Shown here: piece by piece, positions 9,909-29,898 of the stretch
Layout: each line of letters opens with the position of its first letter
How positions within the stretch are numbered: position 1 is the first letter of the stretch
Source of the DNA: Candidatus Ryanbacteria bacterium CG10_big_fil_rev_8_21_14_0_10_43_42
GTDB lineage: Bacteria > Patescibacteriota > Minisyncoccia > Ryanbacterales > 2-02-FULL-48-12
Assembly: GCA_002793915.1 (NCBI GenBank)
Contig: PFEF01000008.1
Coordinates: 18,159-82,158 of the forward strand
Direction of reading: 5' to 3'
Length of the DNA stretch: 64,000 bases
Made by a program: the position numbers and the translations under genes
Notes under the pieces: generated by a model
The model's input: only the letters and a program-made list of their open reading frames with translations
The model's database searches: none
Told to the model about the DNA's origin: nothing

Positions 9909-10949
9909 CTAGAAAGGATTTTTAGCGCCCCGAACTTCAAAATGCACATGACATCCCGTGGACCGTCCGGTTGATCCGATCGTACCAATCGTTTGCCCCT
10001 GCACGACGTACTGTCCAATGGAAACCCAGTTTGCGGTATTGTGCGCATAAAGCGTCTGGGTGCCGTTTGCATGTGATATTACGATATAATTTCCGTACCC
10101 GCCATTCCATCCGGATGCCCGAGAGACAATTACCGTTCCGGAGGCGGATGCATAAATAGGGGAACCACACGAAAGTGCTAAATCCACACCATTAAACCCA
10201 TGTAAATCTTGTGTTTTCTTTCCACCACCTACAGGACGGATATAATAGCCGGAAGCATCTTTTAAATTGCCTATATTAATCCGAAGCTGACTTGTACCTG
10301 CCGCTATCACGCGCTCTTTTGTTACCTCTCCATCGGGAATAATAACCTCATCCCCAACAGCAAGCACCGCATCCGCCGAAAGATCATTATAGGCAAGAAT
10401 TTCATCCAGATCTCCGCTATATTTTTTCGCAATGGACTGAAGAGTATCGCCCTTTGCAACAGCATGACGAATTCCCGTTACCGGCAAAATAACCAAAACA
10501 TCTCCCGGTTTGATAAGATCCCCGCGCGTTATATTATTCGCCCAGATAATGGTATTGGTTGTTACCCCAAACATGCGCGCAATGATGGAAATATTATCGC
10601 CCTCGCGTACGGTATAAAGCGTAATACTATCGGTCCTTATTTCTTCCACATCGGCAATGCTTCCCAAAGGACCCACCACCGGAAGAAGGGTACTCGCATC
10701 TATAATGGGAAGCGATGCTCCTCCGGTAGCCGCCGCTTTTATATCCGGATTATGTGGTGCCTCCAAAAGAGGCATGGTTTGAAGAGATGTAGTTCCGTCA
10801 TAATCCGCATCCGCTTCTTGCAACACATTATTAAGCCCTAAAAGACCGCCTATAAATGAAAAAAGCCCGGCGTGTGCCTGCTCTATAGAAAACAAGGATA
10901 TGGTAAGCGCAACTACGACAAACAGGATTGCCTTTTTAAATCGGTACAA
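9909..10949 (-). CDS. LysM-domain M23-family metallopeptidase (peptidoglycan hydrolase)
   Basis: 346 aa; signal anchor, two LysM repeats (YTVREGDNISIIARMFGV; HAVAKGDTLQSIAKKYSG), C-terminal M23 motifs HxGxD...YAHN...GSTGRSTGCHVHFE. Confidence 0.85.
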   Translation of the reverse strand: MYRFKKAILFVVVALTISLFSIEQAHAGLFSFIGGLLGLNNVLQEADADYDGTTSLQTMPLLEAPHNPDIKAAATGGASLPIIDASTLLPVVGPLGSIADVEEIRTDSITLYTVREGDNISIIARMFGVTTNTIIWANNITRGDLIKPGDVLVILPVTGIRHAVAKGDTLQSIAKKYSGDLDEILAYNDLSADAVLAVGDEVIIPDGEVTKERVIAAGTSQLRINIGNLKDASGYYIRPVGGGKKTQDLHGFNGVDLALSCGSPIYASASGTVIVSRASGWNGGYGNYIVISHANGTQTLYAHNTANWVSIGQYVVQGQTIGTIGSTGRSTGCHVHFEVRGAKNPF

Positions 10950-15069: not shown

Positions 15070-16131
15070 TTACCCGCACCCGCATATACCCGTCTGTGGA
15101 TCCCATATGGCATTTGGCCAGGCGCCGCACTGTAAATTAAGGCATCCGAGCGGTATGGTGCATCCCATGGAATGCGGTCCACAATCGGGAACGCTTACAC
15201 ACACAAAACCGGTACAATTAAGTCCGCAATTACAACAGCCAATCACGCTGTTAAATCCCGGCACCGTAAAAAATGGGGCATCATCCTTATAGCAATCTCC
15301 CCCCAATCCAAATGATGATCCCCCCGTTACCCATGACGCACGTGCTTCTTGTGGAATTAAAACAAAGGCGACAGCATCCAGTATATCCCGTACAAGATCA
15401 TGCGTATTTTCCGTACTTATAAGAAACTTTTGCCCGCCAAGCATCACAGAAACCGATTTAAACTCCCTTTCATAACTCTGCCGCTCCCGCGTAACATCAT
15501 CTTTAAGCGTGGTTGTAATATGATATATATACACTTCTTTCTGCTCTTCCGTAATAAAACCGCGTTCGGCGGCATATGCCACGAGTTGCCGTAAAATAAC
15601 ACTGATTTCTTCGTCCGTAGCGGGATTCGGATTAATATCCTTTTCATCAATAAACCCTTCATTCTTCATAAGAAGCTGTACATTATACAAAGAATCCCTG
15701 TACGTCGGCGGCCATAACCGGTCAAAAACAAGCTCTTCAATCTCTTCCGGAGAACGTTCTGGTGTTTTGTCGGGGGAAGAATCTGTAGTTGCAGGAATAG
15801 AAGAATGTTCCTTTTCCGGTACCTCGTCTTGATTTATGTGCGGTAATAATGTCACCACATTGTTTTTTATCGTTTCAAACACATCATATTGAGTGTTATT
15901 ATCATCGCTTTCTTTTATTGCGGAAAATAGAGGAACTTTTTCATGCAAACCGCCCGTATATTCTTTCTCCGATAATGATACATATGACGAGGAAGAATAA
16001 TCTTTACTCTCACGAGACAACTCATTGTCTTCTCCATAGCGCGTGCCTAAAAAAACCAGGGATAGTAAAACAAAAGCAAGTACTGATCCGCCGCCTAAAA
16101 AAAATATTGTTTGTTTATCTATGCCGTACAT
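15070..16131 (-). CDS. membrane-anchored protein with extremely Cys-rich C-terminal domain
   Basis: start placed at MYGIDKQ.. (16129-16131), immediately followed by TM helix; longest ORF extends to 16260 but would overlap divergent gene; last ~75 aa contain 16 Cys (CCNCGLNC..CGCG). Confidence 0.45.
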   Translation of the reverse strand: MYGIDKQTIFFLGGGSVLAFVLLSLVFLGTRYGEDNELSRESKDYSSSSYVSLSEKEYTGGLHEKVPLFSAIKESDDNNTQYDVFETIKNNVVTLLPHINQDEVPEKEHSSIPATTDSSPDKTPERSPEEIEELVFDRLWPPTYRDSLYNVQLLMKNEGFIDEKDINPNPATDEEISVILRQLVAYAAERGFITEEQKEVYIYHITTTLKDDVTRERQSYEREFKSVSVMLGGQKFLISTENTHDLVRDILDAVAFVLIPQEARASWVTGGSSFGLGGDCYKDDAPFFTVPGFNSVIGCCNCGLNCTGFVCVSVPDCGPHSMGCTIPLGCLNLQCGAWPNAIWDPQTGICGCG

Positions 16132-16254
16132 ATGTACATCATATACCGTACCATGCAAAATATATAGAGGTTCATAAGTTATCCACACGGAAAAACATAA
16201 ATTTGTCACGGGAAAAGGTACAATATATTGTATTAGCGGTAATGTCCGTGCGTT

Positions 16255-17244
16255 TTGCAATACCTTCCTAGTAAAAAATTTTTTATATTCCTTTTTACTC
16301 TCACAATACTCTTGAGTGTGGGATGGTATTTAAATTCTCCAAAAACACATCAGACAATACAGACAAACACATCATCCAAGAAAAAGGATTCCTCCACAGG
16401 CATCATAGCCAAAAAAGATACGGACGGCGACGGACTTCTTGATTGGGAGGAAACTCTCTGGGGAATGAATCCCGACAATCCCGATACTGACGGGGATGGT
16501 ATTTCTGACAATGAAGAGGTTCTAGCACAGGAACACACGCTTTCTCTTGAATCCATCGCATCCATATCACCCGCCTCCGATACGCTTTCTGACGACGAAC
16601 CGCCTTCTCTCGTTGCTCAAATTGCCCAAGATTTCGGAAAAACGTATCTCCAACAAAAATTCACCACCTCATCAATTGATACGGAGCGCATGAGTACGGA
16701 TCTTGTAACAAAACTGCAAAATACCATTGTCGAAGAATCATCCCGAAATCTTTCCTCACCCTTTAGTGAAAAAGATATTATTGTGATAAAAGAAAACTCC
16801 TCATCCGCTCTGCTTACCTATATAAATGGGCTCGGAAATGCCATACAAAGCATGCCTCATATTGAAAAAAACGGCATACTGCTGTTTACTCTCGGACTTT
16901 CCAAACAAGAAATTATCAGTGAAGATCTTTTTACTGAAGAGCTTACGGGCTACCTGACACTTATAGAGTCGCTTAAAAAAATTCCCGTACCGAAATCCAT
17001 GGCAGATACTCATATCGCTCTGATGAATAACTTCTGGCATCAGTATCAAATTATACGCAGTCTTTCGAAAGTGGACAGCGATCCGGTTCGAGCGCTTGCG
17101 GCATTCAATCGCTATCCCGAAATTGCCGAAGAATCCCTCTCTCCTCTTGGCGCTATTATAGATAGTATTGTTCAAAACGATCTCTCCTTTACCGAAGAAG
17201 ACGGCGGTCTGGTGTTTGTCAGTTATAAGGAATTACGCAAATGA
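16255..17244 (+). CDS. secreted/membrane-anchored protein with thrombospondin-type-3-like Asp-rich Ca-binding repeats
   Basis: 329 aa, TTG start per ORF track; N-terminal signal anchor; DTDGDGLLDWEE..NPDNPDTDGDGISDNEE motif pair. Confidence 0.5.
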   Translation: MQYLPSKKFFIFLFTLTILLSVGWYLNSPKTHQTIQTNTSSKKKDSSTGIIAKKDTDGDGLLDWEETLWGMNPDNPDTDGDGISDNEEVLAQEHTLSLESIASISPASDTLSDDEPPSLVAQIAQDFGKTYLQQKFTTSSIDTERMSTDLVTKLQNTIVEESSRNLSSPFSEKDIIVIKENSSSALLTYINGLGNAIQSMPHIEKNGILLFTLGLSKQEIISEDLFTEELTGYLTLIESLKKIPVPKSMADTHIALMNNFWHQYQIIRSLSKVDSDPVRALAAFNRYPEIAEESLSPLGAIIDSIVQNDLSFTEEDGGLVFVSYKELRK

Positions 17245-18788
17245 AATTTCTTTCCCTACTACGACAGTCTTTCAGATCTCACACTCTTGTTAAGGGAGGT
17301 GTTGCTCTTTTTATAGTTGGTAGTATATTCCTTCCATTCGTTCGTACGGCCGATGCCGTAGTTCCCGTACACTGCCCGACCATCTGCCAAACATGGGATG
17401 TTGCGCTTTCGGGAAAAATAGGCGCATCACCCGAAAGATGGTTTGCCACGAAAGAACATAGTTCAACCGGCCTTGCAAGCGTTACGGGGATCGTTGACGC
17501 AATAACAAACCCTTCACTCGATGCCATTCTTTGGGAAATAGCACGCGTTATCTTACGACAATTCGCTGAAAATATTATTGAATGGATTAAAACCGGCCAA
17601 GATCCGTTCTTTTTCGGCGGTACAAACGGGGGGTTATTCGTAACAAACATAGATGAGTTTGTGCTTGATGCGGCGGATAATGCGGCAGGCGTCTTTCTTT
17701 CGGAATATTTGGGAGATGCATATGATAATCTATGTTCTCCGTTTCGTCTTGATGTAGCACTTGGCCTGGGACACAGTTACGGGCGTGATTACGGCAGTTT
17801 TAAATATCAGGCACGGTGCAGTATAACCGACATTGTTGCCAACCTCGAAGATTTTTATAACGATTTTGAAAACGGCGGCTGGGAAGCATGGTTTGCAACG
17901 TCTCGCTATGAAAATAACCCCTTAGGCCTTCTTACTCTTTCCGTGGAAACTTCCATTGGCCGCGAAACGCGCGCCGCAAATGCCAACATTCTTGATTTTT
18001 CAGCCGGTCTCGGTTTTCTGGGTCTTCGCGAGTGTCCGCCGGAAAACCAGATTCCCGGCCCCACACAGGATGGAAAACCGCTTTGTAAAAATAACGGCTA
18101 CATAACAAAATCTCCCGGAAAAGCCGTAGAGGATCAATTAGCCGATGCACTTGGTCAAGATATCCGTCAGCTGGAAATAGCCGATGAAATGAACGAAATT
18201 ATTGCCGCCATTTTTGATGAACTTCTTTCCTGGGCATTGGGAGGCGCCGGCGGGGGACTCCTTGGTTACGAAAAAGGATCCGTTCCTGATTTTCCGGATC
18301 CCGGCGATACGGGAGCGCTTTCCTGTGCCCGCGCAACAGGAAAACCCAGTGGCTGTGAATGTTCATTTAATGAACAGTGCGCAAGTAAAATATGTAATGG
18401 AAGTCTGGTATGTGAGGCACCTCCAACACCGCCCGATATTCCCGGAGGAGGAACAACACAGTGCTCGGACGGTTTTGATAATGATGGCGATCGCCTTATA
18501 GATTCCGCCGATCCCGATTGTGTTGATGCAAATGACGATTCAGAAGCTTACCCTCTTCCCGAATGTAGTGATGGTCTTGATAATGACGGGGATTTACGAA
18601 TTGATTTTCCTGTTGATCCCGAATGTCCCAATGCTCTCTTCAACGACGAAACAGGAGGACCACCACCTCATTGTAGTGATGGTCTTGATAATGACGGGGA
18701 TAGCCTCATCGACTGGCCGGATGACCCGGGATGCAGAGACATATTTGATGATCGTGAAACGGATACTCCAAACCCGACTGAAAACTAA
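17241..18788 (+). CDS. secreted protein with three C-terminal CSDGxDNDGDxxID..DP.C repeats (putative Ca/metal-binding)
   Basis: 515 aa; signal anchor; start overlaps previous stop (ATGA); 29-nt exact DNA repeat tgtagtgatggtcttgataatgacgggga at 18564 and 18671. Confidence 0.55.
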   Translation: MKFLSLLRQSFRSHTLVKGGVALFIVGSIFLPFVRTADAVVPVHCPTICQTWDVALSGKIGASPERWFATKEHSSTGLASVTGIVDAITNPSLDAILWEIARVILRQFAENIIEWIKTGQDPFFFGGTNGGLFVTNIDEFVLDAADNAAGVFLSEYLGDAYDNLCSPFRLDVALGLGHSYGRDYGSFKYQARCSITDIVANLEDFYNDFENGGWEAWFATSRYENNPLGLLTLSVETSIGRETRAANANILDFSAGLGFLGLRECPPENQIPGPTQDGKPLCKNNGYITKSPGKAVEDQLADALGQDIRQLEIADEMNEIIAAIFDELLSWALGGAGGGLLGYEKGSVPDFPDPGDTGALSCARATGKPSGCECSFNEQCASKICNGSLVCEAPPTPPDIPGGGTTQCSDGFDNDGDRLIDSADPDCVDANDDSEAYPLPECSDGLDNDGDLRIDFPVDPECPNALFNDETGGPPPHCSDGLDNDGDSLIDWPDDPGCRDIFDDRETDTPNPTEN

Positions 18789-18806: not shown

Positions 18807-20936
18807 ATGATTTCTTTTTTGCAAAATAAAATACTCCTTTTTAGTGGCATACTCCTACTTACGCTGTTTGCGGTGTTTTCGCCGGCGGTATCGCATAGCG
18901 CGGATGCTCAATTTTATTCCGAATGCATAAATAACGTAATACCGGGAAAAATCGAATATGCTTTATGCGGCGAGGGCGCAACACTAAAAGCCGCCGCAGA
19001 CGCTTGTGCGGCAAAAGGGTGTACAGGGCTTCAATTTCAATGTCTTGGATCCTCGGCGGGATCTTGCCCCACACCTCCTGTTGATCCCACCGCCACACTC
19101 ACAAAGGCAGCCGGTGGTGCCGTCGTGCAGTACGTTCTTCCGAGTGTTATCAAGGCTCTTATCGGTATAATACAATTTCTTAATTCCGTTCTTGTCTGGG
19201 TGGTGGGAATTGTGGCACGTCTATTTGATCAAGCTGTTGCCATAGCGCTTGCCGGCTTTGGACAATTAAAATTTATTGAACTGGGCTGGACTATCGCGCG
19301 CGATGTTGCCAACATATTCTTTATTCTTATTCTTCTTGTTATTGCCATTGCCACCATCCTGCGTGTTGAAACATACGGCATAAAACAACTCCTTCCGCGC
19401 CTTGTCATTACCGCTCTTCTTATCAACTTTAGTTTGGTAATATCATTTGCCGTGGTAGATGCGTCCAATCTGTTAGCGCTTCAATTTATAGAGCCCATTT
19501 ATCCGGTATCTAATAAAATTGCTGATGTTATGAATATCAGCCAAATAACAGCGCTTAACGCGGGCACTTCACCAAGAACAGAAATTGAGTTTACCGATGC
19601 GGTTACTAACGGTTTTTACGATGTTCTTAATAAGTACAATAACTCCCCTGTAGCAAATCCAAGCGCTGCGACCGCAATGGCTCTCGGCCAAGCTCCCAAC
19701 CAGTTTGACCCTCTTATAGTAGATGGCTTGTTTCAGGTTATCATTCTTATTCTACTGCTCATTCTTATATTTGTGTTTATAGCGCTTGGCGCCCTTCTTA
19801 TCATTCGCACCATTGCTCTCATGGTTATATTTGTTTTCGCCCCTATCGGATTTATCGCCGGCATACTCCCGCAAACAAAAGGATATAGCACGGACTGGTG
19901 GCGGGCACTGTTTAACTGGTCATTCTTCTTTCCGGCATCCGCCTTCATGATGTACCTTGCCATACAATACGGAAAAGAAATAAGCGCCATCGTACGAGAT
20001 TCTCAAACGCTTAATACCGCCGCTCTATTCAGTTATGTGAGTATCGCCGCCATCCTGCTTGGCTCCATCTTGGTGGCAAAGAAAATGGGTATCTATGGAG
20101 CTGATGCCGCCATCAATATTGGCAGAAAGATACAAAAAAGTGCGCAAGGATATGCCGGTAGGGGAACTAAAAACTTAGGATTGCGAGCTACCGGGGGAGT
20201 AGCGCAAAGCGTCACGAAAGGCGTCTCAAGCATTCCAGTAATAGGCGGCGTACTAGCTAAAACTCCTGCCGCTATTGTGCGCGCAGACGAAAAGAGAAAA
20301 AGTGAAAAAGAAAAACAATACCGTGAAATTGCGAAAGGTTCCAAAACCGCCGTTCGAGCGGCACTCCAGGGAACAGCTCTTCCGGGCAATAAAGAACTTA
20401 TCCGGCGCCTTGCCGTTGAAGAAGGAAAAGCGGATGCATTAGACACCGCAGACCTTAGGCGCGATCACGCAAAATACATCACCACAGGAAATACGAAAGC
20501 TATTAAGAATATTGAAAAAGTACTTCCTGAACTTGCCGCTACCCGCGGAGCAACTCCTCAAGAGCAGGAACTAAATCTCAACCAAGCGGTATCAAACCTA
20601 ACCGTAAAAGATATTCAGGATAATCTTAGGGAAGATTCTCTTGCCAACGAAAAGGTTCAGAATGCGCTTCTTTTGGCGGCAAAATCAAATGTATTGGAAG
20701 CGGGATTGGATGAATTTGGAAAGAAATTTGGTGATGCATTGGAAAGCGCATACACTCGCTTAAAAAGCATTACACCGCCTCCCGGAACTTCTCAAGAACT
20801 GCATGCATACGATAAACTAAGCAGATCGACCGCGAAATTCTTTGTCGTAAGTCCGGGCGCTCAAATTCTTAATTCGAAAATAAGTCATGAAATTGCGTCT
20901 TCAGCTAAAACAAGAGGTCATAATTTTAATCCTTAA
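18807..20936 (+). CDS. large polytopic membrane protein, VirB6/TrbL/PrgH-like by topology and context
   Basis: 709 aa; signal peptide, Cys-rich ~90-aa ectodomain, >=6 TM helices, ~300-aa hydrophilic C-terminal domain; positioned upstream of VirB3-like and VirB4 genes. Confidence 0.5.
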   Translation: MISFLQNKILLFSGILLLTLFAVFSPAVSHSADAQFYSECINNVIPGKIEYALCGEGATLKAAADACAAKGCTGLQFQCLGSSAGSCPTPPVDPTATLTKAAGGAVVQYVLPSVIKALIGIIQFLNSVLVWVVGIVARLFDQAVAIALAGFGQLKFIELGWTIARDVANIFFILILLVIAIATILRVETYGIKQLLPRLVITALLINFSLVISFAVVDASNLLALQFIEPIYPVSNKIADVMNISQITALNAGTSPRTEIEFTDAVTNGFYDVLNKYNNSPVANPSAATAMALGQAPNQFDPLIVDGLFQVIILILLLILIFVFIALGALLIIRTIALMVIFVFAPIGFIAGILPQTKGYSTDWWRALFNWSFFFPASAFMMYLAIQYGKEISAIVRDSQTLNTAALFSYVSIAAILLGSILVAKKMGIYGADAAINIGRKIQKSAQGYAGRGTKNLGLRATGGVAQSVTKGVSSIPVIGGVLAKTPAAIVRADEKRKSEKEKQYREIAKGSKTAVRAALQGTALPGNKELIRRLAVEEGKADALDTADLRRDHAKYITTGNTKAIKNIEKVLPELAATRGATPQEQELNLNQAVSNLTVKDIQDNLREDSLANEKVQNALLLAAKSNVLEAGLDEFGKKFGDALESAYTRLKSITPPPGTSQELHAYDKLSRSTAKFFVVSPGAQILNSKISHEIASSAKTRGHNFNP

Positions 20937-20941
20937 TTTAT

Positions 20942-22141
20942 ATGGCAACACTTACACCACAAGAAGCGGATCAACGCATACAACGTCTCCCAAAGGCGCT
21001 TCGGCACGTTTTGTTTGCGGGAGCTACGGCTGACGCCGTATTTGATATTGGTACAAAATACAAACTTCTTATCGATAAAATGGGAGAACTGGCGTCCGAA
21101 ATAGGCGACTTTATGATCGGTGCCACAAAACCAAATGAATTTGTCGGTAATTTGGAACGTCGCCTTCAAATAGATAAAAGCGTTGCAAAACAAATAGCCG
21201 ACGATGTTAATAAGCAAATATTCGCCCCCGTCCGAAAAGAACTTCGTGAACTTCATGGCGTGGAAGAAAGCGATAAAGACACAAAAACGGAAGAGGTTCC
21301 CCAAAATATTGCGGAAACAACGGAACAAAGTACCGCTTCTTCCTTATTTGACGACAAACTTAATTTCGTAGAAGAAGAAGGAAAGAGTCTTTCTTTTGTA
21401 AAAAACAGCTCCATTGAAACATTAAAACGCGAACTTGATGAAGCGGTAGAAGAACCCCCTCACTTAAAAGAAAGTCATTCCTACTCACGGAATGACCCGT
21501 ACCGTGAGTCCATCACCAATGATGCATCTCCGCCTCCAAAACCATTCCCTAAATCAATAAAACCGCCGGAAGAAAAAGCCCCGCCTCCGCCGGAAGAAAA
21601 GATCACACCCGCATCTCCCATGTTCTCCCGTCTTCCCGAAACAACCCTTCAACCCAAAAAGAATATTCCTCCCGCCGCACCTGTTCCGTATACAAATGAA
21701 AAACCTTTTTCTTCCTCTCCATTTAGAAAAATACCGTCTCCGGGACCAAAGGCTGTTATCGACATAGATACCATAGCCAATGAAAAAGTTTCTTTTACCC
21801 CTATAGAAAAGAAAAATGACCCGCCTCCACCGCTCACCTCTTCCTCGCAAGAAAAAGAGCCTGTTAAAGAAATAACCCCCGTATCTCCGCCTGAAATAGT
21901 ATCTCTTGAAGAAAAATCTCCGGAAACCATACCAAAAGGAGGCGCTATCCCCACATTTCGCGGATTTTCCGCACAAAAGAAACAAGTGGAGGGCGTCCCT
22001 CGTGTACCGGATTACTTGCGTCCGGCCGCTTCTCCGCCTCCGCCAAAACCACCAACGCCACCCAAGCCAAACCCCGTAAAACAAAACCTTTCTCCTTCAA
22101 AACAAGATGAAAGCGATCCCTACCGCGAACCAATATCATAA
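20942..22141 (+). CDS. proline/glutamate-rich low-complexity protein, unknown function
   Basis: 399 aa; globular ~110-aa N-terminus then PPPKPxP / PPEEK repeats. Confidence 0.5.
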   Translation: MATLTPQEADQRIQRLPKALRHVLFAGATADAVFDIGTKYKLLIDKMGELASEIGDFMIGATKPNEFVGNLERRLQIDKSVAKQIADDVNKQIFAPVRKELRELHGVEESDKDTKTEEVPQNIAETTEQSTASSLFDDKLNFVEEEGKSLSFVKNSSIETLKRELDEAVEEPPHLKESHSYSRNDPYRESITNDASPPPKPFPKSIKPPEEKAPPPPEEKITPASPMFSRLPETTLQPKKNIPPAAPVPYTNEKPFSSSPFRKIPSPGPKAVIDIDTIANEKVSFTPIEKKNDPPPPLTSSSQEKEPVKEITPVSPPEIVSLEEKSPETIPKGGAIPTFRGFSAQKKQVEGVPRVPDYLRPAASPPPPKPPTPPKPNPVKQNLSPSKQDESDPYREPIS

Positions 22142-22173
22142 AACACACTATCCGACCCTCACCATATACTTAC

Positions 22174-22662
22174 ATGCAACAATTTCAGGTACCACAATTT
22201 ATTCAGGTGGAAGATAAAATTTTCGGTCCTCTCACCACAAAACAATTCTTCTATCTTCTGGGTGGAGGCGGGCTTTCCTTTTTATTTTGGTTTTTCTTCA
22301 ATTTCTGGATCTTCATCATACTTTCCATTCCTGTCGTAGCACTCGCACTCGCACTCGCATTTTACACGGTAAATGGACAGCCTCTTGTTTCTGTTATCGG
22401 AAACTACTTTGGCTACATAGCACGCCCCCGTCTCTTTATCTGGAAAAAGAAGGAACATTTTTCCAAAAAAGATTCTGTCATAACGGGCGGAGGCGGGGGA
22501 CTGCACATACCAAAAGTATCCCAGGATAAACTAAAGGACCTCGCATGGTCTTTAGATGTTATGGAGCATGTAAAGCGAGAACGTCCGCCAAACATTCGTG
22601 AAAATGCATTCCCCGCGAATAAAGATAAGGACAACGTCCCTCCGCGCACGACCGACGTCTAA
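22174..22662 (+). CDS. small 2-TM membrane protein, VirB3/PrgI-like by position
   Basis: 162 aa; two adjacent TM helices; gene directly precedes VirB4 N-domain ORF. Confidence 0.45.
   Translation: MQQFQVPQFIQVEDKIFGPLTTKQFFYLLGGGGLSFLFWFFFNFWIFIILSIPVVALALALAFYTVNGQPLVSVIGNYFGYIARPRLFIWKKKEHFSKKDSVITGGGGGLHIPKVSQDKLKDLAWSLDVMEHVKRERPPNIRENAFPANKDKDNVPPRTTDV
22339..22359 (+). repeat. (GCACTC)x3.5 hexanucleotide tandem repeat inside CDS (encodes ALALALA)
   Basis: direct reading of 22339-22359. Confidence 0.5.
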
Positions 22663-22679
22663 TAATATAAATCTTTTCT

Positions 22680-23330
22680 ATGGCACAATCCACACGCCCC
22701 GCACAAGACATTGTCTCCATAAAGGAAGTTCGTGACGGCGTTCTTCTTTTGAAGGACGGTTCTTTTCGTGTGGTACTTATTGCTTCCTCTATTAACTTCG
22801 CTCTTAAATCGGGTGAGGAACAGGACGCTATCGTGCTTCAGTACCAAAATTTTCTTAATTCGCTTGATTTCTCCGTTGAATTCTTTATTCAATCACGCAG
22901 ATTGAATATTGATCCATACCTTGATATTTTACGCGAACGCCTTAAACACACCTATCATGATCTTATGAAAATTCAAATTACCGAATATATCGACTTCGTA
23001 GGTTCATTTGTGGATTCCGCAAATATTATGACAAAGAATTTTTATATCGTTGTTCCCTTTACGCCGGGCGGATCTTTAAAGAAAAAAGAAGTACAAAGCG
23101 TTTTTTCCTCTTTATTTAAGGGAGGAAAGGAATCAAAGCCGATTGAAGAAGGAGCCTTTGAAGAATATAAAACGCAATTATACCAGCGTGTGGAGGTTGT
23201 CCGGCAAGGACTTATACGCACAGGCGTGCGCGTTGTACCGCTTAACACCGAAGAATTAGTGGAGCTGTTTTATGAACTTTATAATCCGGGAGAAGCGGAG
23301 AAGGGGAAGATACCGGAAACAACCGGTTAG
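22680..23330 (+). CDS. VirB4-family N-terminal domain encoded as separate ORF
   Basis: 216 aa; IVSIKEVRDGVLLLKDGSFRVVLIASSINFALKSGEEQDAIVLQYQNFLNSL resembles N-terminus of Gram-positive-type VirB4 (TraE/PrgJ/TcpF); different frame from 23398 ORF. Confidence 0.55.
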   Translation: MAQSTRPAQDIVSIKEVRDGVLLLKDGSFRVVLIASSINFALKSGEEQDAIVLQYQNFLNSLDFSVEFFIQSRRLNIDPYLDILRERLKHTYHDLMKIQITEYIDFVGSFVDSANIMTKNFYIVVPFTPGGSLKKKEVQSVFSSLFKGGKESKPIEEGAFEEYKTQLYQRVEVVRQGLIRTGVRVVPLNTEELVELFYELYNPGEAEKGKIPETTG

Positions 23331-23397
23331 GGCACCATATATTGGCTTTTTGGAAATGGTTCCAAGAAACCAATACCCGGCATCCTAATATTACACT

Positions 23398-25221
23398 ATG
23401 GGTTTATTTGATTCCCTTACGGGGAAAAATAAGAAAAAAGAGGATGAAATTCTTCCTGTATTTCCGCAGGATATTTATGCCGCCGGCATGCTTGATTTGG
23501 GAGATGCTATAGCTCCCGCGGCTCTTGAGGTGAATTCCAGCTATATTCGCCTCGGTGAAAAGTATGCCCGCACCATATTTGTATTTACCTATCCGCGATT
23601 TCTTGCGACTAGCTGGTTTGCTCCCATCATTAACCTGGATAAAATATTCGATGTCGCAATATTTGTCCATCCCGTAAACACCGTTATTATTTTGCGCGAT
23701 CTTAGAAAAAAAGTTGCCGAAGTGCAGTCGCAAATTTCCTTGCGCGAAGAAAAAGGACTGGTGCGCGATCCGGTGCTTGATACCGCATATCAAGATCTTG
23801 AAGCGCTCCGCGATAAACTGCAACAAGCCCAAGAAAAATTATTTAGCTTGGGACTCTATATAACCGTATATGCCGATACGCTCAAGGAGTTAGATGATTC
23901 GGAAACTGAAATTCGATCTCTTCTTGAAGCCCGTTTGGTATACGCAAAACCGGCATTGTTTCAACAGCAGGAGGGTCTTACGAGCACATTTCCTTTAGCA
24001 CTTGATGTGTTAAAAATAAGCACCTACATGAATTCTTCTCCTATTTCGAGTATTTTTCCTTTTGTTTCCTTTGATCTTACATCCAATCGCGGTATTTTAT
24101 ACGGCATCAATCGGCACAATAACAGTCTTATCTTATTTGATCGCTTCACCCTTGAAAACTATAATACGGTAATCTTCGCAAAAGCCGGTGCCGGAAAATC
24201 ATACATGACAAAACTTGAAATCCTTCGCTCCCTTATGTTTGACGTAGAGGTGATTGTGATTGATCCGGAAAGAGAATATGAGTATCTTGCCGAAACGGTG
24301 GGAGGACGCTTCTTTAATATATCGGTAAACTCGCCTCATCACATCAACCCCTTTGACCTTCCGTTTCCGCAGGATGATGAATCGGTGGCAGACGTACTCC
24401 GTTCAAATATCATAAACCTTGTCGGACTTTTTCGTATTATGCTGGGCGGCTTTACGCCCGAAGAAGATGCTATTTTAGACCGCGCCATTACGGAAACTTA
24501 TGCCGCAAAAGATATTACCCCCGATGCTGATCTTACAAAAGTATCTCCTCCTCTTCTTTCCGACCTACAAACCATTCTTGCTGACATGGAAGGAGGGGAT
24601 CATATTGCCGTCCGGCTAAGAAAGTATACCGAAGGAACGTGGGCCGGATTCCTCAATCACCCCACCAATATCAATATCGACAAACATATCGCCGTATTTT
24701 CACTGCGGGATATGGAAGAGGAAATTCGTCCGGTGGGTATGTATATCGTTACCCATTACATCTGGAATGTTGTGCGTTCAGAGCTTAAAAAGCGTATTTT
24801 AATCGTAGATGAGGCGTGGTGGATTATGAAAACGGAAGATGGTGCCTCTTTTTTGTACGGTCTTGCGAAGCGTGCGCGTAAATATTACCTGGGTGTTACT
24901 GCCATTACACAGGATGTTACTGATTTTATCAGCTCCACCTACGGAAAACCTCTTATAACCAACTCCTCCATTCAAGTTCTTCTCCGCCAATCACCCGCAT
25001 CTATCGATATTATCCAGCAAACATTCAACCTTACCGATGAAGAAAAGTTCCTTTTACTGGAATCAGATGTGGGGGAGGGTATTTTCTTCGCGGGATTAAA
25101 GCATGTTGCCATTAAGGTTATTGCGTCGTATACGGAAGATCAGATAATTACATCCGATCCGGCGCAATTACTGGCCATTAAAAAAGCGAAAAAAGATCTT
25201 ACGGAACAGGAGGGATTATAA
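23398..25221 (+). CDS. virB4: VirB4/TrbE/CagE-family type IV secretion ATPase (C-terminal ATPase portion)
   Basis: 607 aa; Walker A AKAGAGKSY, Walker B ILIVDEAWW, downstream motifs GVTAITQD; overall VirB4-like organisation. Confidence 0.8.
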   Translation: MGLFDSLTGKNKKKEDEILPVFPQDIYAAGMLDLGDAIAPAALEVNSSYIRLGEKYARTIFVFTYPRFLATSWFAPIINLDKIFDVAIFVHPVNTVIILRDLRKKVAEVQSQISLREEKGLVRDPVLDTAYQDLEALRDKLQQAQEKLFSLGLYITVYADTLKELDDSETEIRSLLEARLVYAKPALFQQQEGLTSTFPLALDVLKISTYMNSSPISSIFPFVSFDLTSNRGILYGINRHNNSLILFDRFTLENYNTVIFAKAGAGKSYMTKLEILRSLMFDVEVIVIDPEREYEYLAETVGGRFFNISVNSPHHINPFDLPFPQDDESVADVLRSNIINLVGLFRIMLGGFTPEEDAILDRAITETYAAKDITPDADLTKVSPPLLSDLQTILADMEGGDHIAVRLRKYTEGTWAGFLNHPTNINIDKHIAVFSLRDMEEEIRPVGMYIVTHYIWNVVRSELKKRILIVDEAWWIMKTEDGASFLYGLAKRARKYYLGVTAITQDVTDFISSTYGKPLITNSSIQVLLRQSPASIDIIQQTFNLTDEEKFLLLESDVGEGIFFAGLKHVAIKVIASYTEDQIITSDPAQLLAIKKAKKDLTEQEGL

Positions 25222-25261
25222 TAAATCTTGAACAGCTTATTTACAAGCATAATCTATTGCT

Positions 25262-25780
25262 ATGGCATCAGACGCAATAGCGCAAATATCCATAGAACAA
25301 TCTGATACCGAACAGGAAAGCCGGGCGGATCTTCTGCGTGCACGGACGGCCGATAAGCGGCGGGAAAAAAATACCGAAAAAAACCAAGAAATAAAAACCG
25401 GTACTCAAAAACCCTTTCCCATTAGTCCCGTAGAATCAGGGATTGGTATGATGATTGGCTTATGTGTGGACGCATTTGAAGCGTTGGGGGCGCTTACCGC
25501 CGTCATTCCCGTTATAGGGTGGGCTATTGCGGGTGCCAGTGCTGTGGTAGGAGCCGTATTTAGTGGTATAATGTTTTTAGGAATTGCTCTATGGTTTTTG
25601 TTTAAGGGAATTTGTCCCGACAATCCACATAATATAACATTATATACCGTTTTATTTGCCACAACGTTCAGTAATACCGTTTTTAATTGGCTTCCCGCAT
25701 GGTTTGGATTTTTCTTCTGGCTATTTTATCGTTTTTATAAGAAAAAAATTATTCCTTTTTCATTCGAATCTAAAAAATAA
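25262..25780 (+). CDS. membrane protein (3-4 TM), unknown; part of secretion-like cluster
   Basis: 172 aa; acidic N-terminus, hydrophobic helices. Confidence 0.5.
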   Translation: MASDAIAQISIEQSDTEQESRADLLRARTADKRREKNTEKNQEIKTGTQKPFPISPVESGIGMMIGLCVDAFEALGALTAVIPVIGWAIAGASAVVGAVFSGIMFLGIALWFLFKGICPDNPHNITLYTVLFATTFSNTVFNWLPAWFGFFFWLFYRFYKKKIIPFSFESKK

Positions 25781-26793
25781 TGACGTATTCTTTTAAAAAA
25801 TATAGTAGTCTTTTTGCTCTTGTAGGAAGTGGTACGCTTCTTGTTTTTAGTTTTATGACGTTCTCCGCTTATGCGCAAGACACTCTTGTTAGCCGTGATG
25901 TGCAGTTTATATTCACACCCCCTTCTCCCGGACCTCACGAAACTGTTCGGGTGGATGCACGTTCTTTCAGTTTTGATATGGAAACAGCCCTATTTACCTG
26001 GGTAGTAGATGGCGTAACGGTGGAATCGGAAGTCGGTAAAAAATCCATAACCATCACAACCGGTCCGGTGGGGTCCGAAACACGCATATCCTTAACTGCC
26101 ATACCAAAAACAGGCAGACGCGTTGAAAAAAGCATTACTATTTTCCCCGGTAGTTTGGATTTAATATGGTCAGCGAATACATACGTGCCGCCCGGATATC
26201 AAGGAAAACCCCTTCCCACCCGAGGATCTACCGTAACCGTTACGGCCGTTTCCAATATTGCGGCCGGATTTGGACTCCTTTCGGCAAACGAGCTTTTTTA
26301 CGAATGGCGGCTAAATAATATTATTCAACCCCAATATTCCGGACGGGGACGAAGTGTATTTTATTTTACTATCGGAACAAGTCCTAATATAGAACATGTT
26401 GTGTCCGTAATCGTGAAAGACGCTTCGGGTGCCACCACCCAAGAAAAACGCGTTACCATCAAACCGCAAGAGCCGCGTATATTGTTTTACGAAATAAATC
26501 CTCTGCGCGGTCCTCAATTTAATAATGCTATCACAGATCGTTTCTCGCTAACGTCGGGTCAAGAAGCCCAATTTCTTGCTGTTCCGTTCTTTATACGCAC
26601 GCCTCTATCATCATTTACTTCTTTTTGGAAAATTAACACAGATATACTTCCTCCGGATGAATCCGATCGTGATATACTGAATTATCGTTCCGATTCGGGA
26701 AGTGCGGGAAAGCAAACTATTTCTTACGAAATTGAAAATCCGTCTTATATTTTTGAACGGGCACGTAATTCATTTATCATCAATGTACAATAA
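25780..26793 (+). CDS. secreted beta-rich protein, unknown
   Basis: 337 aa; signal peptide; repeated beta-sandwich-like segments. Confidence 0.5.
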   Translation: MTYSFKKYSSLFALVGSGTLLVFSFMTFSAYAQDTLVSRDVQFIFTPPSPGPHETVRVDARSFSFDMETALFTWVVDGVTVESEVGKKSITITTGPVGSETRISLTAIPKTGRRVEKSITIFPGSLDLIWSANTYVPPGYQGKPLPTRGSTVTVTAVSNIAAGFGLLSANELFYEWRLNNIIQPQYSGRGRSVFYFTIGTSPNIEHVVSVIVKDASGATTQEKRVTIKPQEPRILFYEINPLRGPQFNNAITDRFSLTSGQEAQFLAVPFFIRTPLSSFTSFWKINTDILPPDESDRDILNYRSDSGSAGKQTISYEIENPSYIFERARNSFIINVQ

Positions 26794-26800
26794 CTTCTCT

Positions 26801-27199
26801 ATGCGTATATTCTTCTTTATTGTAATAATCCTGTTATTCTTTTCTGTCGGGTGGTTGGGGGCGGATGCCGCCACTTACAACCTGCTCGCGCCCTTGCCGG
26901 GCGGAACAGCATCTATTGATACCAGTAACGGCTTTATTACCTATATTTCTCAAATTTTCTGGTTTCTCTTAAGTGCCGCCGGCATTTTAGCTGTTCTTAT
27001 GCTTATTTTTGCCGGAGCCGAATATGTGGGCGCCGCCGGAAACCCCAGTGTTATAAATGACGCAAAAAGCCGTATTTTTAATGCTATCCTTGGCCTCCTT
27101 CTCGCACTTACGGCATATCTTATTTTAATAACGATAAACCCCAATCTGATTAATTTAAAATTAACTGTTCCTCCCATTCCGGCATCCGTAAATCCTTAG
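26801..27199 (+). CDS. small secreted protein with two hydrophobic helices, VirB2/TrbC-pilin-like topology
   Basis: 133 aa from ATG 26801 (longest ORF from 26702 overlaps upstream gene); signal peptide ..GADA then two hydrophobic helices separated by a short polar loop. Confidence 0.4.
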   Translation: MRIFFFIVIILLFFSVGWLGADAATYNLLAPLPGGTASIDTSNGFITYISQIFWFLLSAAGILAVLMLIFAGAEYVGAAGNPSVINDAKSRIFNAILGLLLALTAYLILITINPNLINLKLTVPPIPASVNP

Positions 27200-27206
27200 A
27201 TATTAT

Positions 27207-28409
27207 ATGAACAGCGACAAACGAAAAAAAATAATTATTATCGGCGCAAGCGTTCTTGGTGTCATTCTTATTGGAACAGGAATATTTTTCTTTTTCCGCG
27301 GTGACAGTCAGAATTCCGAACAGTCATTTTTTGGAAGGCTGTTCGGCGGAGATATGCCCGTAATTCCCGGCGAAGGCGACGGTATAGAAACTCTTCCCCG
27401 CCCGAACACACCTGCAGAAGGGGAGGGGCCACGCCTGAATCGTGTTTCGGAAGAACCGGTTATCGGAGCAACATTCATACCCGATACTGATAAAATAAAA
27501 TATTTTAAAAAAGCCACCGGTCACCTTTTTGAAAATACTTACGACGGATTAAACGAACGTCGCGCGTCAAATATCACCATTCCCGCCATCCAAAAAGCAC
27601 TCTGGTCTCCTTCAAAAGAGTATGCGGTACTTTCCTATTATACGGACGGGGATATACGACACTTTTATACAAAATACTCCGGCACAACAACGGCAGAATC
27701 CGGTTTTTTACCGCCGTCTCTCACATCTATAACTATGTCCGCTGAACGTGATGTTATGGCATATACACTTCCGGTAAACGGAGAGACTGCCGTCATAACG
27801 GCACGCCCGGATAATACCGCGCAAAGCACTATTCTTCGCACGTCCATCCCTGACATTATACTTGCCTTTCCCGGATCACAGACGCTAAGTATACAAACAA
27901 AGGGGTCCGCTTATGCTGAAGGTTATTTATATACCCTCACAACGCCAAACGGAAATCTCGTTAACGTATTGGGCGAAATATACGGACTTTCATCGCTTTG
28001 GTCCCCGGATATAAATACCGTTCTCTATTTTTCAACAAACCAAAACGGCAATAGCCCGTCACTAAATCTTTATTCAAAAAATACCGGAGTGGTACGCACC
28101 CTTTCTATGACAACACTTCCGGAAAAATGCGTGTGGTCATCACGGGAAGAGGAACATATCCTTTATTGTGGTATTCCCGATAAACTCCCCCGCACGACAT
28201 TACCTGATGCGTGGTGGCAGGGGACCGTATCATTTTCCGATTCCATTTGGCGCATCAACCTGGATACTAATGAACAAATAAAACTTATAGATACAAGCGA
28301 GTTGAACGTAGATGCTGTGCATCTTTTCACTTCAGGGGATGCTTCTCATCTCTTTTTCACCAATAAAAAAGACGGCAGCTTATGGAGCTACCGCCTTACT
28401 GGTCTCTAA
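27207..28409 (+). CDS. membrane-anchored extracytoplasmic protein, possibly beta-propeller
   Basis: 400 aa; N-terminal TM anchor; Gly/Pro-rich linker; repeated W/Y-containing beta segments. Confidence 0.5.
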   Translation: MNSDKRKKIIIIGASVLGVILIGTGIFFFFRGDSQNSEQSFFGRLFGGDMPVIPGEGDGIETLPRPNTPAEGEGPRLNRVSEEPVIGATFIPDTDKIKYFKKATGHLFENTYDGLNERRASNITIPAIQKALWSPSKEYAVLSYYTDGDIRHFYTKYSGTTTAESGFLPPSLTSITMSAERDVMAYTLPVNGETAVITARPDNTAQSTILRTSIPDIILAFPGSQTLSIQTKGSAYAEGYLYTLTTPNGNLVNVLGEIYGLSSLWSPDINTVLYFSTNQNGNSPSLNLYSKNTGVVRTLSMTTLPEKCVWSSREEEHILYCGIPDKLPRTTLPDAWWQGTVSFSDSIWRINLDTNEQIKLIDTSELNVDAVHLFTSGDASHLFFTNKKDGSLWSYRLTGL

Positions 28410-29647: not shown

Positions 29648-29656
29648 TGGTAATTA

Positions 29657-29890: not shown

Positions 29891-29898
29891 GTTTACTA

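Follow-up and report, generated by a model that had tools for sequence, protein, structure and literature searches.

A predicted exported protein pair with calcium-binding-type repeats at the head of the Paceibacteria chromosomal type IV secretion operon

Patescibacteria (CPR), of which the Paceibacteria (Parcubacteria) are the largest class, account for a large fraction of all bacterial diversity, and those in culture grow attached to host cells. Candidatus Ryanbacteria, the source of the DNA analysed here, is an ultra-small groundwater bacterium. A recent survey describes patescibacterial MPF_FATA-like type IV secretion systems (T4SSs) that lie on the chromosome near dnaA and ksgA, comprise TrsD, PrgI, VirB6, VirB4 and a VirB2-like pilin, and appear to have been repurposed away from conjugation; epibiotic growth requires the chromosomal T4SS in the one species that is genetically tractable (Quinonero-Coronel et al. 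2025, PMC12102498). The survey reports no adhesins and few VirB8 or VirB1 homologues, so that outer components are missing from its parts list (PMC12102498).

Two Ca-binding relatives of the repeats considered below have been solved. The C-rich domain of human teneurin-4 (residues 834-871, PDB 7PLP) holds three Ca2+ ions in octahedral geometry through E835, D840, D843, N844, D845, D847, D851, D854 and D856 (Meijer et al. 2022, PMC9058538), with sites I and II following the thrombospondin type-3 pattern. The other, Bap of S. aureus (PDB 7C7R), is a cell-wall-anchored biofilm protein with a Ca-binding EF-hand pair. A further repeat type, NCBIfam NF033662 ('acidic double-disulfide repeat'), is found in small, secreted proteins from Myxococcota and Deltaproteobacteria.

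The first two genes of a conserved T4SS operon

In the window, a stretch of 64,000 nucleotides, an earlier note had picked out two consecutive genes upstream of a T4SS-like module. Both open reading frames, p1 and p2, are present as described, with a 4-nt ATGA overlap at 17241-17244 (p1 stop 17242-17244, p2 start 17241), and 18 nt separate p2 from virB6. The module directly downstream indeed encodes TrbL/VirB6, PrgI, TrsD/TraC-like, VirB4-type ATPase and T4SS_pilin proteins. The genes concerned are as follows:

16255-17244, + strand: p1, 329 aa (PJE64198.1, COU90_03815), TTG start; predicted bitopic membrane protein; T4SS operon gene 1
17241-18788, + strand: p2, 515 aa (PJE64199.1, A0A2M8KWA8); predicted secreted; T4SS operon gene 2
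18807-28409, + strand: remaining T4SS operon, from Pfam and NCBIfam matches, with the nine genes below
18807-20936, + strand: VirB6/TrbL-like
20942-22141, + strand: Pro-rich protein, 399 aa
22174-22662, + strand: PrgI/VirB3
22680-23330, + strand: TrsD/TraC-like
23398-25221, + strand: VirB4 ATPase
25262-25780, + strand: 172-aa protein
25780-26793, + strand: 337-aa protein
about 26801-27199, + strand: T4SS_pilin
27207-28409, + strand: 400-aa protein
9909-10949: LysM-peptidase M23 gene, conserved near the operon

The locus shares its set of T4SS parts and its chromosomal position near dnaA and ksgA with the systems described in the survey, and, as there, no relaxase was found among the ORFs tested (PMC12102498). 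The order P1-P2-VirB6-(Pro-rich)-PrgI-TrsD-VirB4-...-pilin recurs in each of the 26 genome loci to which P2 led, as far as the length of the locus lets it be read; these take in Ryan-, Giovannoni-, Nealson-, Yanofsky-, Taylor- and Wolfebacteria. Two loci reached via distant P1 relatives likewise keep the operon order, and further metagenome loci carry P1-P2-VirB6 in each case in which the flanking sequence is available. Across the loci, these genes mostly overlap or lie at most 5 nt apart. In every Paceibacteria locus examined (~30), the tight P1-P2 pair stands at the operon head, near oriC. p1 and p2 are therefore the conserved first two genes of the Paceibacteria chromosomal T4SS operon, which strengthens the T4SS link proposed in the earlier note. 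In our searches, both families were restricted to Paceibacteria and were not found on plasmids.

That link is weakened by synteny on a larger scale. The whole ComM-LysM/M23-UvrD-KsgA-...-Jag-YidC-dnaA block is syntenic in the group, unrelated housekeeping genes included, so conserved position alone is no proof of shared function. P1 and P2 might be general envelope proteins (wall, S-layer or matrix organisers) that neighbour the T4SS only by frozen synteny: the flanking ComM, UvrD, KsgA, Jag, YidC and dnaA are as syntenic as they are, neither the P1 nor the P2 core resembles a T4SS part, and the nearest monoderm system, a Pontibacillus plasmid-borne T4SS whose VirB4 is 33% identical, has homologues of PrgI, TrsD, VirB4 and the pilin but no P1 or P2. 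The gene junctions, however, argue for a closer tie. The genes lie on the same strand, with P1-P2 overlapping or nearly abutting virB6; the KsgA-P1 spacer varies and tolerates insertions, unlike the P1-P2-VirB6 junctions; and in a lineage with a differing upstream context (loci L008, L009, L013 and L014) the UvrD/KsgA genes are absent while the pair is still joined to VirB6. We consider the envelope explanation unlikely.

P1: predicted membrane anchor, loop pair and helical bundle

Three regions were delineated in p1:

16276-16335, + strand: predicted TM anchor, aa ~8-27 after KK, by hydropathy; AF2 helix 7-27
16417-16518, + strand: TSP3_bac / EF-hand-like loop pair (PF18884), putatively Ca-binding; D55-E66 and D77-E88, 22 aa apart
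16609-17238, + strand: C-terminal all-alpha helical-bundle ectodomain, aa 119-328; unannotated family domain

The N-terminal motif M-x-YLPSKKF and the TM segment are kept among p1 family members, and we therefore place the start at the TTG at 16255 rather than adopt the 308-aa call of some pipelines. As the N-terminus has no A-x-A site for cleavage, p1 is predicted to lie N-in/C-out. Here and in p2, the assignment of signal peptide and topology used rules, hydropathy and family conservation.

The thrombospondin type-3-like pair that had been noticed in p1 was borne out by profile search: against Pfam PF18884 TSP3_bac, whole p1 scored 29.2 bits (gathering cutoff 25) and the isolated segment aa 51-95 scored 38.5 bits (E 1e-9, 2 stretches), and the same profile matches 67 of 120 p1 family members. 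The broader likeness to TSP3 and EF-hand families stood only in part: TSP3_bac and, in p2, NF033662 exceeded their cutoffs, but the eukaryotic Pfam PF02412 TSP_3 reached 11.9 bits and EF-hand_1, EF-hand_5 and EF-hand_6 ~14 bits each, below the cutoff of 25. The two loops, DTDGDGLLDWEE (aa 55-66, nt 16417-16452) and DTDGDGISDNEE (aa 77-88, nt 16483-16518), follow the pattern DxDxDGxxDxxE and are acidic at positions 1, 3, 5, 9 and 12 (D55/D57/D59/D63/E66 and D77/D79/D81/D85/E88). Among motif-bearing family members, D55, D57, D59 and W64 are 100% conserved. No other segment of the family is as well conserved as the loop pair (47-57% identity vs 23% in the bundle), which AF2 models with a pLDDT of 87-93; the TSP3-type motif D.D.D[GK] is missing from 55 of the 150 best P1 representatives.

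The P1 family profile matches the Bap EF-hand pair (E 2e-4), aligning with DYDKDGLLDRYE...DTDGDGKNDGDE, and also matches lanmodulin (E 4e-3). Like Bap and the PF18884 repeats, p1 has two DxDxDGxxDxxE loops above the Pfam cutoff, each followed by a short helix, and like Bap it is extracellular, in its case by prediction. The architectures differ: p1, encoded within a secretion operon, is by prediction a type-II membrane protein of small size whose ectodomain is a helical bundle. Ca-dependent switching is a feature of Bap. Taken with the spacing of their acidic residues, these matches suggest that the p1 loops bind Ca2+.

The helical bundle is confidently modelled (AF2 pLDDT 90-98); it has no Pfam match, its best Foldseek hit in the PDB has an E value of 1.2, and P1 compared with the VirB5-VirB6 stalk 8RT9 gave a Foldseek probability of 0.05. 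Exhaustive HMMER searches collected 591 cluster representatives at E<=1e-3 with the same architecture as p1. The family is unannotated, and it is the fastest-diverging product of the operon, with 23-31% identity where VirB4 retains ~80%.

P2: predicted secreted core and acidic C-terminal repeats

The regions of p2 are as follows:

17241-17357, + strand: predicted Sec-type signal peptide, aa 1-39, cleavage A37-D-A39/V40, by hydropathy
17358-18275, + strand: conserved core domain, aa ~40-345; orphan family with conserved Cys pairs (alignments A1, A4)
18324-18413, + strand: six-Cys mini-domain (C362, C372, C374, C380, C385, C391), after a Gly-rich linker
18462-18563, + strand: acidic repeat 1, CSDGFDNDGDRLIDSADPDC plus spacer; NF033662; aligns with teneurin-4 C838-C857
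18564-18671, + strand: acidic repeat 2, CSDGLDNDGDLRIDFPVDPEC plus spacer; NF033662
18672-18785, + strand: acidic repeat 3, CSDGLDNDGDSLIDWPDDPGC plus acidic tail; NF033662

Secretion, claimed earlier for both proteins, is predicted from the KK plus TM anchor in p1 and from an n-h-c signal peptide with a conserved A-x-A in p2. The p2 N-terminus carries positive charges and a hydrophobic stretch (aa 15-35), and VVPVHCP directly follows the A-x-A site. Counted over the homologues that keep the N-terminal segment (21 of 24 rows), Ala at -1 is at least 90% conserved and position -3 is A, V or T, followed by a conserved VPVHCP.

The core (~350 aa) is an orphan, and its family is unannotated; Pfam, PDB, PHROG and plasmid searches gave no match to it. 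All 18 cysteines of p2, an even number, lie within the mature part, and p2 probably contains disulfides. In the close-relative alignment A1, C165, C193, C265 and C282 of the core are invariant, as are D94, D146, D315 and E316, with D197 and E203 kept in at least 90% of rows; of the core cysteines, only C165 and C193 are still invariant in the wider alignment A4. The AF2 model of p2 is of low confidence (pLDDT 48), and the core is mostly helical in it. The pattern C..G(R/K)P.GC.C....QCAS..C....C of the six-Cys mini-domain is conserved in closer homologues, and profile search found no family match for this domain.

Beyond the core, P2 homologues differ. Their C-termini carry acidic repeats in 0-3 copies, so the variation in repeat number that the earlier note had raised does occur, or else He_PIG, Big_7 or CHB_HEX_C_1/Fn3-associated domains, and other C-terminal regions have no Pfam match, some of them Cys-rich. 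Most family members are without acidic repeats, which are thus not essential to the function of the core.

Conserved acidic and polar residues in a mostly helical core, even in a low-confidence model, would also suit an enzyme or effector, either a VirB1-like wall opener or a factor that is secreted through Sec and acts on the host; the repeats would then be a Ca-stabilised targeting tail. The rarity of VirB1 homologues in Patescibacteria, according to the survey (PMC12102498), leaves room for the former, and the acidic Cys-bracketed motif is found on algal enzymes, namely a diatom glucanase and Volvox gametolysin (PMC3278476). However, no hydrolase-family match emerged in Pfam, NCBIfam or the PDB, the LysM-peptidase M23 gene at 9909-10949 could already supply wall opening, and the Ig-like C-terminal modules of relatives are more typical of binding proteins. 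We regard an enzymatic or effector role as quite unlikely.

In p2 itself, three stretches match NF033662 (70.2 bits, cutoff 41, E 8e-20). The Cys-bracketed units CxDGxDNDxDGxxD..DPxC span C408-C427, C442-C462 and C478-C498, with loops of 20-21 aa, which agrees with the three bracketed repeats of the earlier note; their period, however, is 34, 36 and 38 aa (102 and 108 nt) rather than the ~45 aa given there, and an exact duplication put at 29 nt measures 30 nt. This duplication (18564-18593 = 18672-18701) comprises the first 30 nt of repeats 2 and 3, and the chance of an exact 30-mer within a 1.5-kb gene is negligible; repeat 1 shows only ~70% DNA identity. Within the duplicated stretch, repeats 2 and 3 agree in all ten of their synonymous-codon choices, which suggests that they underwent recent duplication or gene conversion. 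Repeat-only NF033662 homologues (P0175-P0192) carry CxDGxDNDGDGxIDxPxDPxC...D.SE with two Cys per unit and a similar period. There, the repeats fill nearly the whole of a 110-200 aa protein, whereas p2, at 515 aa, has a T4SS-operon-specific core and carries them as its C-terminal tail.

The match of p2 to the teneurin-4 C-rich domain is short and borderline (25-27 residues; phmmer E 0.005, family profile E 0.008). The two have in common the core C-x-D-x-x-D-N-D-G-D-x-L-x-D-x-x-D-P-x-C, the type-3 pattern of sites I and II and an extracellular location, predicted for p2. In the alignment, repeat 1 keeps D410, D413, N414, D415, D417, D421, D424 and D426 together with the equivalent of the first disulfide, C838-C857. 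Seven of eight acidic ligands plus the Asn are kept in repeat 1, seven of eight, with a one-residue insertion, in repeat 2, and six of eight in repeat 3, which also has a one-residue insertion and no D856 equivalent. All three repeats lack an E835 equivalent; sites I and II are complete, and site III is uncertain. In contrast to the six teneurin cysteines (disulfides 1-3, 2-5 and 4-6), each p2 unit has two, equivalent to Cys1 and Cys3, and is without disulfides 2-5 and 4-6 and the conotoxin-like C-terminal half, so it resembles the Ca-binding half rather than a full member of the teneurin domain. Teneurin has a single copy where p2 has three in tandem, and p2 is bacterial and unrelated to YD-shell proteins. 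On these ligands, the acidic repeats of p2 would be expected to bind Ca. The repeats of p1 and p2 are ordinary members of known Ca-binding-type repeat kinds.

The repeats might instead bind another metal (copper, as proposed for MopE-type motifs, or lanthanides, as in lanmodulin) or mineral surfaces; the proteins would then capture metals or attach the cell to carbonate particles in groundwater, and not mediate cell-cell contact. A groundwater origin is indicated by the CG10_big_fil_rev prefix of the source MAG name, which we take to denote the Crystal Geyser groundwater series. The lanmodulin match of the P1 profile also favours this reading, as does a published alignment between the teneurin core and the Cu motif of MopE (Tucker et al., PMC3278476). 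The putative metal-binding motif of myxobacterial surface proteins to which the earlier note likened the repeats (PF11617 Cu-binding_MopE) was not recovered, however, either in whole p2 at E<=0.1 or in p2 aa 396-515 at E<=10, a search in which HMMER filters may hide very weak matches. Only oxygen donors (Asp/Asn/Glu) occur among the ligands, and His, Met and free Cys are missing; the solved relative holds Ca2+ in octahedral geometry; and the operon-head position argues for a T4SS-related role. Binding of another metal or of minerals is, in our judgement, very improbable.

A proposed surface part of the T4SS

Comparisons of sequence and fold found no similarity between the P1 and P2 cores and known T4SS components or adhesins, VirB5, VirB8, VirB1 and PrgB/PrgC included. 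Their resemblance to the pilus-tip protein VirB5/TrwJ and to the PrgB/PrgC/TraO adhesins of monoderm conjugation is one of layout: export is predicted for both, their genes neighbour virB6 within a T4SS operon, helices make up most of P1 and, in its low-confidence model, of the P2 core, and P2 has variable, binding-type C-terminal modules. The P2-VirB6 order recalls virB5-virB6 in the Agrobacterium virB operon. The pair differs from these surface proteins in having no LPXTG motif and in belonging to Paceibacteria-restricted families absent from plasmids. No description of the two upstream families was found in the sections of the survey consulted (PMC12102498); they would be additions to its T4SS parts list. 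The families and their T4SS link appear to be undescribed; the repeat types were already known.

Since p1 and p2 head a conserved T4SS operon from whose parts list outer components are missing, they are candidate surface-contact parts. We propose, with somewhat more confidence than doubt, that they form an exported, coupled pair serving as an extracellular, Ca2+-stiffened accessory or contact part of the Paceibacteria T4SS. The p1-p2 pair would be translationally coupled at the 5' end of the chromosomal, oriC-proximal operon. P1 would be anchored in the cytoplasmic membrane by its single N-terminal helix and project the Ca2+-binding TSP3/EF-hand-like loop pair, followed by the fast-evolving helical-bundle ectodomain. 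P2 would be freed from the membrane by signal peptidase; it would combine a disulfide-bonded core, conserved and specific to T4SS operons, with a lineage-dependent C-terminal 'display' module, here a six-Cys knot and three single-disulfide acidic loops that appear to retain the Ca ligands of the teneurin C-rich / thrombospondin type-3 site. Ca2+ would be structural: by folding acidic segments that are otherwise flexible and making them stiff, it would hold the ectodomains away from the cell surface, and the pair could act as a stalk, tip or adhesin-like part towards the host cell of the epibiont. Physical association with the T4SS and a role in contact or adhesion are suggested by genomic context, and the adhesin or Ca-dependent matrix role advanced in the earlier note may be read in the same way.

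A more specific version, possible though doubtful, is that the pair makes up the end of the T4SS that meets the host and is missing from the parts list, P1 as a membrane-anchored, Ca2+-stiffened stalk and P2 as the secreted tip, its conserved core docking to VirB6 or the pilin and its exchangeable C-terminal module (acidic Ca-loops here, Ig domains or other modules in relatives) determining the host surface that the epibiont can engage. If true, the pair would define a class of T4SS component that is new and specific to the lineage, not a known component with decorations.

For the Paceibacteria, two unannotated, predicted-exported and fast-evolving families provide concrete candidates for the outer part of the T4SS. 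The Ca-binding-type repeats offer a simple experimental handle, and the modular C-terminus of P2 leads to a testable hypothesis of host specificity.

Calcium-binding-type repeats in p1 and p2

The two genes under study overlap in the sequence ATGA, and both products are annotated as hypothetical:
16255-17244, p1, open reading frame of 329 aa with a TTG start (PJE64198.1)
17241-18788, p2, open reading frame of 515 aa (PJE64199.1 / A0A2M8KWA8)

As the earlier note had proposed, both proteins carry calcium-binding-type repeats, at significant scores. p1 passes the Pfam model TSP3_bac with 29.2 bits for the whole protein (cutoff 25) and 38.5 bits, in two stretches, for the isolated segment, and p2 passes the NCBIfam model NF033662, "acidic double-disulfide repeat", with three units at 70.2 bits (cutoff 41, E 8e-20). 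The eukaryotic TSP_3 and EF-hand Pfam models scored under threshold. The p2 repeat period, previously put at ~45 aa, is in fact 34, 36 and 38 aa (102 and 108 nt), and the exact internal DNA duplication is present (18564-18593 = 18672-18701) at a length of 30 nt, not 29. The proposed likeness to a myxobacterial metal-binding motif was right in substance, because the p2 repeat region as sole query retrieves small Myxococcota and Deltaproteobacteria proteins built of the same two-Cys unit, although Pfam Cu-binding_MopE did not match the p2 repeats even at E<=10. Both repeat types are of known kinds, that of p2 already falling under a curated NCBIfam model, and are the ordinary part of the finding.

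p1 contains two acidic loops of 12 residues each, DTDGDGLLDWEE (55-66) and DTDGDGISDNEE (77-88), at a spacing of 22 residues. With the profile of its family, P1, this pair aligns to lanmodulin and, at E 2e-4, to the two Ca-binding EF-hands of Bap (7C7R), a biofilm protein of staphylococci. Both p2 (E 0.005) and the profile of its family, P2 (E 0.008), match the C-rich domain of teneurin-4 (PDB 7PLP), whose 1.5 A structure holds three octahedral Ca2+ sites with E835, D840, D843, N844, D845, D847, D851, D854, D856 and three backbone carbonyls as ligands; sites I and II fit thrombospondin type-3 repeats, and the disulfides are 1-3, 2-5 and 4-6 (PMC9058538). Like this domain, p2 repeat 1 has D410, D413, N414, D415, D417, D421, D424, D426 and the Cys1-Cys3 pair. 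Unlike it, p2 has no E835 equivalent and lacks the four other cysteines, while repeats 2 and 3 carry a one-residue insertion before DPxC and repeat 3 is without the last Asp. From this comparison, p2 therefore appears to hold the Ca-binding half of the fold with a one-disulfide clamp, working like the domain rather than being a full member. An earlier phylogenetic study reported this core from a diatom glucanase and from a Volvox gametolysin that likewise lacks the middle Cys (PMC3278476).

A 1-3-5-9-12 acidic spacing is thus common to p1 and p2, helix-flanked in the former and probably disulfide-clamped in the latter, and ligand conservation relative to the solved structures suggests that both proteins bind Ca2+. 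The Ca2+-binding loops would serve as structural stiffeners of extracellular p1 and p2 segments. The alternative of plain low-complexity acidic linkers was rejected on the strength of the scores against curated models, the constant Cys bracket and the agreement, ligand by ligand, with a solved Ca site. A preference for other metals or minerals is very improbable, with specific evidence standing against it.

In a tblastn search of 72,556 plasmids, p1 matched solely via its 40-aa TSP3 segment. Two of these matches (H6 and H9) place the loop pair within PBECR4-domain and ArdC-like proteins of Gram-positive plasmids (Streptococcus, Terribacillus), and the pair may also decorate monoderm conjugation-related proteins.

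The P1 and P2 families

p1 has no cysteines, and its hydrophobic helix (aa 8-27) is preceded by KK. The TTG at 16255 is the right start, the N-terminal M-x-YLPSKKF and transmembrane motif being kept family-wide. JGI, ENA and Logan calls begin at 16318 rather than 16255, 21 codons late, and yield 308 aa with the transmembrane anchor missing; we prefer the NCBI call (329 aa, TTG) because it fits the conserved YLPSKKF N-terminus. A word-indexed search with the C-terminal 235 aa returned p1 itself as its sole match, and exhaustive HMMER searching (E<=1e-3) gave a family of 591 cluster representatives, nearly all of 290-345 aa and with the architecture of p1. In a 120-sequence alignment no other segment is nearly as well conserved as the TSP3 pair, which has 47-57% identity to p1 compared with 23% in the ectodomain, and at least one TSP3-type loop occurs in 95 of the best 150 of the 591 representatives. 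The AlphaFold2 model built on the 120 sequences is confident (mean pLDDT 87.6) and consists of a transmembrane helix, the loop pair accompanied by short helices, and an all-alpha bundle at 119-328. Foldseek comparison of this model with the PDB gave a best E of 1.2 and only generic four-helix sensor or talin-like bundles. A likeness to the VirB5-VirB6 stalk 8RT9 (Foldseek probability 0.05, TM ~0.13) was dismissed as evidence. In P0127, a protein of 2797 aa from the P1 search, nine separate stretches match p1 ectodomain aa 118-186; a helical hairpin of the P1 bundle is therefore also found, tandemly repeated, in a giant protein.

The N-terminus of p2 shows positive charge, then a hydrophobic stretch, then TADA/VVPVHCP, and every one of its 18 cysteines lies in the mature part. 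Beyond the core come a linker rich in Gly, a cluster of six Cys (362-391) and, at the C-terminus, three units whose first cysteines are C408, C442 and C478. The first 395 aa form a small family (23 matches in the search, 26 genome loci) whose recurring core motifs include DAADNAAG and NGGWEAW. Cys pairs are conserved in it: C165, C193, C265 and C282 are invariant in the alignment of close relatives, and C165 and C193 still are in a wider one. The core had no match in Pfam, NCBIfam, PHROG, the PDB or the 72,556 plasmids (tblastn), and profiles from both alignments hit PDB sequences in the repeat-to-teneurin region only. Among 24 P2 and 120 P1 family members, Pfam recognised only C-terminal Ig domains and TSP3_bac, and PHROGs gave no match. 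The AlphaFold2 model of p2 (24-sequence alignment; pLDDT 48.5, pTM 0.20) was unusable, too poor for a fold search. P1 and P2 are not paralogues, the profile-profile probability of 1.9% marking the families as unrelated. Sequence rules and conservation together predict the export, topology and disulfides of the two proteins.

The T4SS operon and its chromosomal setting

The window is chromosomal, from a Candidatus Ryanbacteria MAG, and its genes include PNPase, PBP1, TyrRS, PolA, UvrB, sigma-70 and a PilB-type ATPase; a scan of the large window ORFs revealed neither a relaxase nor a coupling protein. The order 3' of p2 is VirB6/TrbL-like, Pro-rich, PrgI/VirB3, TrsD/TraC-like, VirB4 ATPase, two unknowns, a VirB2-like pilin and one more unknown.

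Window features discussed with the operon (position, strand, feature)
142-1722, -, Big_1/invasin-like Ig-domain protein
9909-10949, -, LysM-LysM-peptidase M23 gene
15070-16260, -, divergent membrane protein, probable start M44 near 16131
20942-22141, +, 399-aa Pro-rich protein between VirB6 and PrgI; long Pro-rich C-terminal half with PPPKP-type runs
22680-23330, +, TrsD/TraC-like gene
23398-25221, +, VirB4 ATPase gene
28423-28893, -, jag/R3H
28850-29647, -, yidC
30681-32057, +, dnaA
32363-33466, +, dnaN
43849-45522, -, PilB-type T2SS/T4P ATPase

The VirB4 N-terminal region forms a separate TrsD/TraC-like gene directly upstream of the ATPase gene, a split that fits the pGO1-type arrangement described for Patescibacteria. 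The Pro-rich protein has no family match, keeps its position across loci and may be a wall-spanning T4SS spacer. The 12-kb operon stops at the cumulative GC-skew minimum, 2.3 kb short of dnaA-dnaN, and fits what a 2025 survey describes for patescibacterial MPF_FATA-like T4SS near dnaA and ksgA (PMC12102498). Positions 28423-33466 are the chromosomal origin region, with dnaA-dnaN and yidC-jag flanking the GC-skew minimum at ~30-32 kb; the operon is transcribed in the direction of the origin and meets the leftward replication fork head-on. A promoter scan was uninformative (26 promoter-like sites vs 26.1 expected), and a terminator scan found no strong + strand terminator within the operon.

The divergent membrane protein has a Cys-rich C-terminal tail, CCNCGLNCTGFVCVSVPDCGPHSMGCTIPLGCLNLQCGAWPNAIWDPQTGICGCG, and no Pfam, NCBIfam or PHROG match; its homologues lie divergently upstream of P1 in closer relatives (loci L007, L008, L010-L014 and L024). 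About 5 kb upstream of the operon, the LysM-M23 gene is conserved in most Paceibacteria loci. It may encode the VirB1-type partner, active in wall opening, for which the 2025 survey reports an association with VirB4 in this class (PMC12102498). The PilB-type ATPase and the Big_1/invasin-like protein are candidates for further surface-attachment genes of an epibiont-type genome.

Conservation and interpretation of the pair

ORFs from all loci retrieved were searched with HMMs of P1 and P2 and with the window operon proteins. P1-P2-VirB6 occurs in every locus with the relevant flank, and loci of sufficient length continue with PrgI-TrsD-VirB4-...-pilin. The loci come from Ryan-, Giovannoni-, Nealson-, Yanofsky-, Taylor- and Wolfebacteria and unnamed Parcubacteria, and two that were found independently via distant P1 relatives, one without TSP3 loops, show the same order with a bona fide P2 adjoining.

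Whether p1 and p2 are instead envelope proteins unrelated to the T4SS bears on how this order is read. Position by itself is weak evidence, because synteny extends to ComM, LysM-M23, UvrD and KsgA on the upstream side and to Jag and YidC on the downstream side as well. Beyond position, however, the P1-P2-VirB6 spacing is of operon type (mostly overlaps or gaps <=5 nt); the KsgA-P1 gap is variable and tolerates insertions, against fixed junctions within the trio; and the trio is retained in a lineage without UvrD/KsgA upstream (L008, L009, L013 and L014). With such specific evidence against it, we regard the envelope-protein reading as unlikely. p1 and p2 are best read as exported accessory proteins of a patescibacterial T4SS that are translated together. 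The closest plasmid-borne T4SS, of Pontibacillus (NZ_CP062975; VirB4 33% identical), has PrgI, TrsD, VirB4 and pilin homologues and lacks P1 and P2 even at E<=10, which marks the pair as an addition specific to Paceibacteria.

Across loci, identity to the window is 60-82% for VirB4 and 27-59% for the P2 core, and for P1 falls to 23-31% or becomes BLAST-undetectable. The P2 C-terminus is modular. Acidic repeats are confined to Ryanbacteria-like relatives, in 0, 1, 2 or 3 copies; other tails consist of a He_PIG or Big_7 Ig domain, a CHB_HEX_C_1/Fn3-associated module or a Pfam-unmatched region (some Cys-rich, some Pro-rich), and the whole protein measures 367 to 1148 aa. The combination of a constant N-terminal part for docking and an exchangeable C-terminus of binding type is what one would expect if P2 is a contact protein exposed at the surface. 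An enzyme or effector is a still less likely identity for p2, and here too specific evidence stands against it.

We rate P1 and P2 as probable T4SS-associated surface proteins that set known Ca-binding modules on novel cores. In the literature searched, no description places this unannotated pair at the conserved head of the Paceibacteria T4SS operon; the parts of the 2025 survey covered here name neither family, and the survey reports no adhesins detected in patescibacterial T4SS (PMC12102498). Genomic context suggests a physical association with the T4SS and a possible role in host contact. If the pair is the host-contact end of the T4SS machine, the finding would gain in interest.
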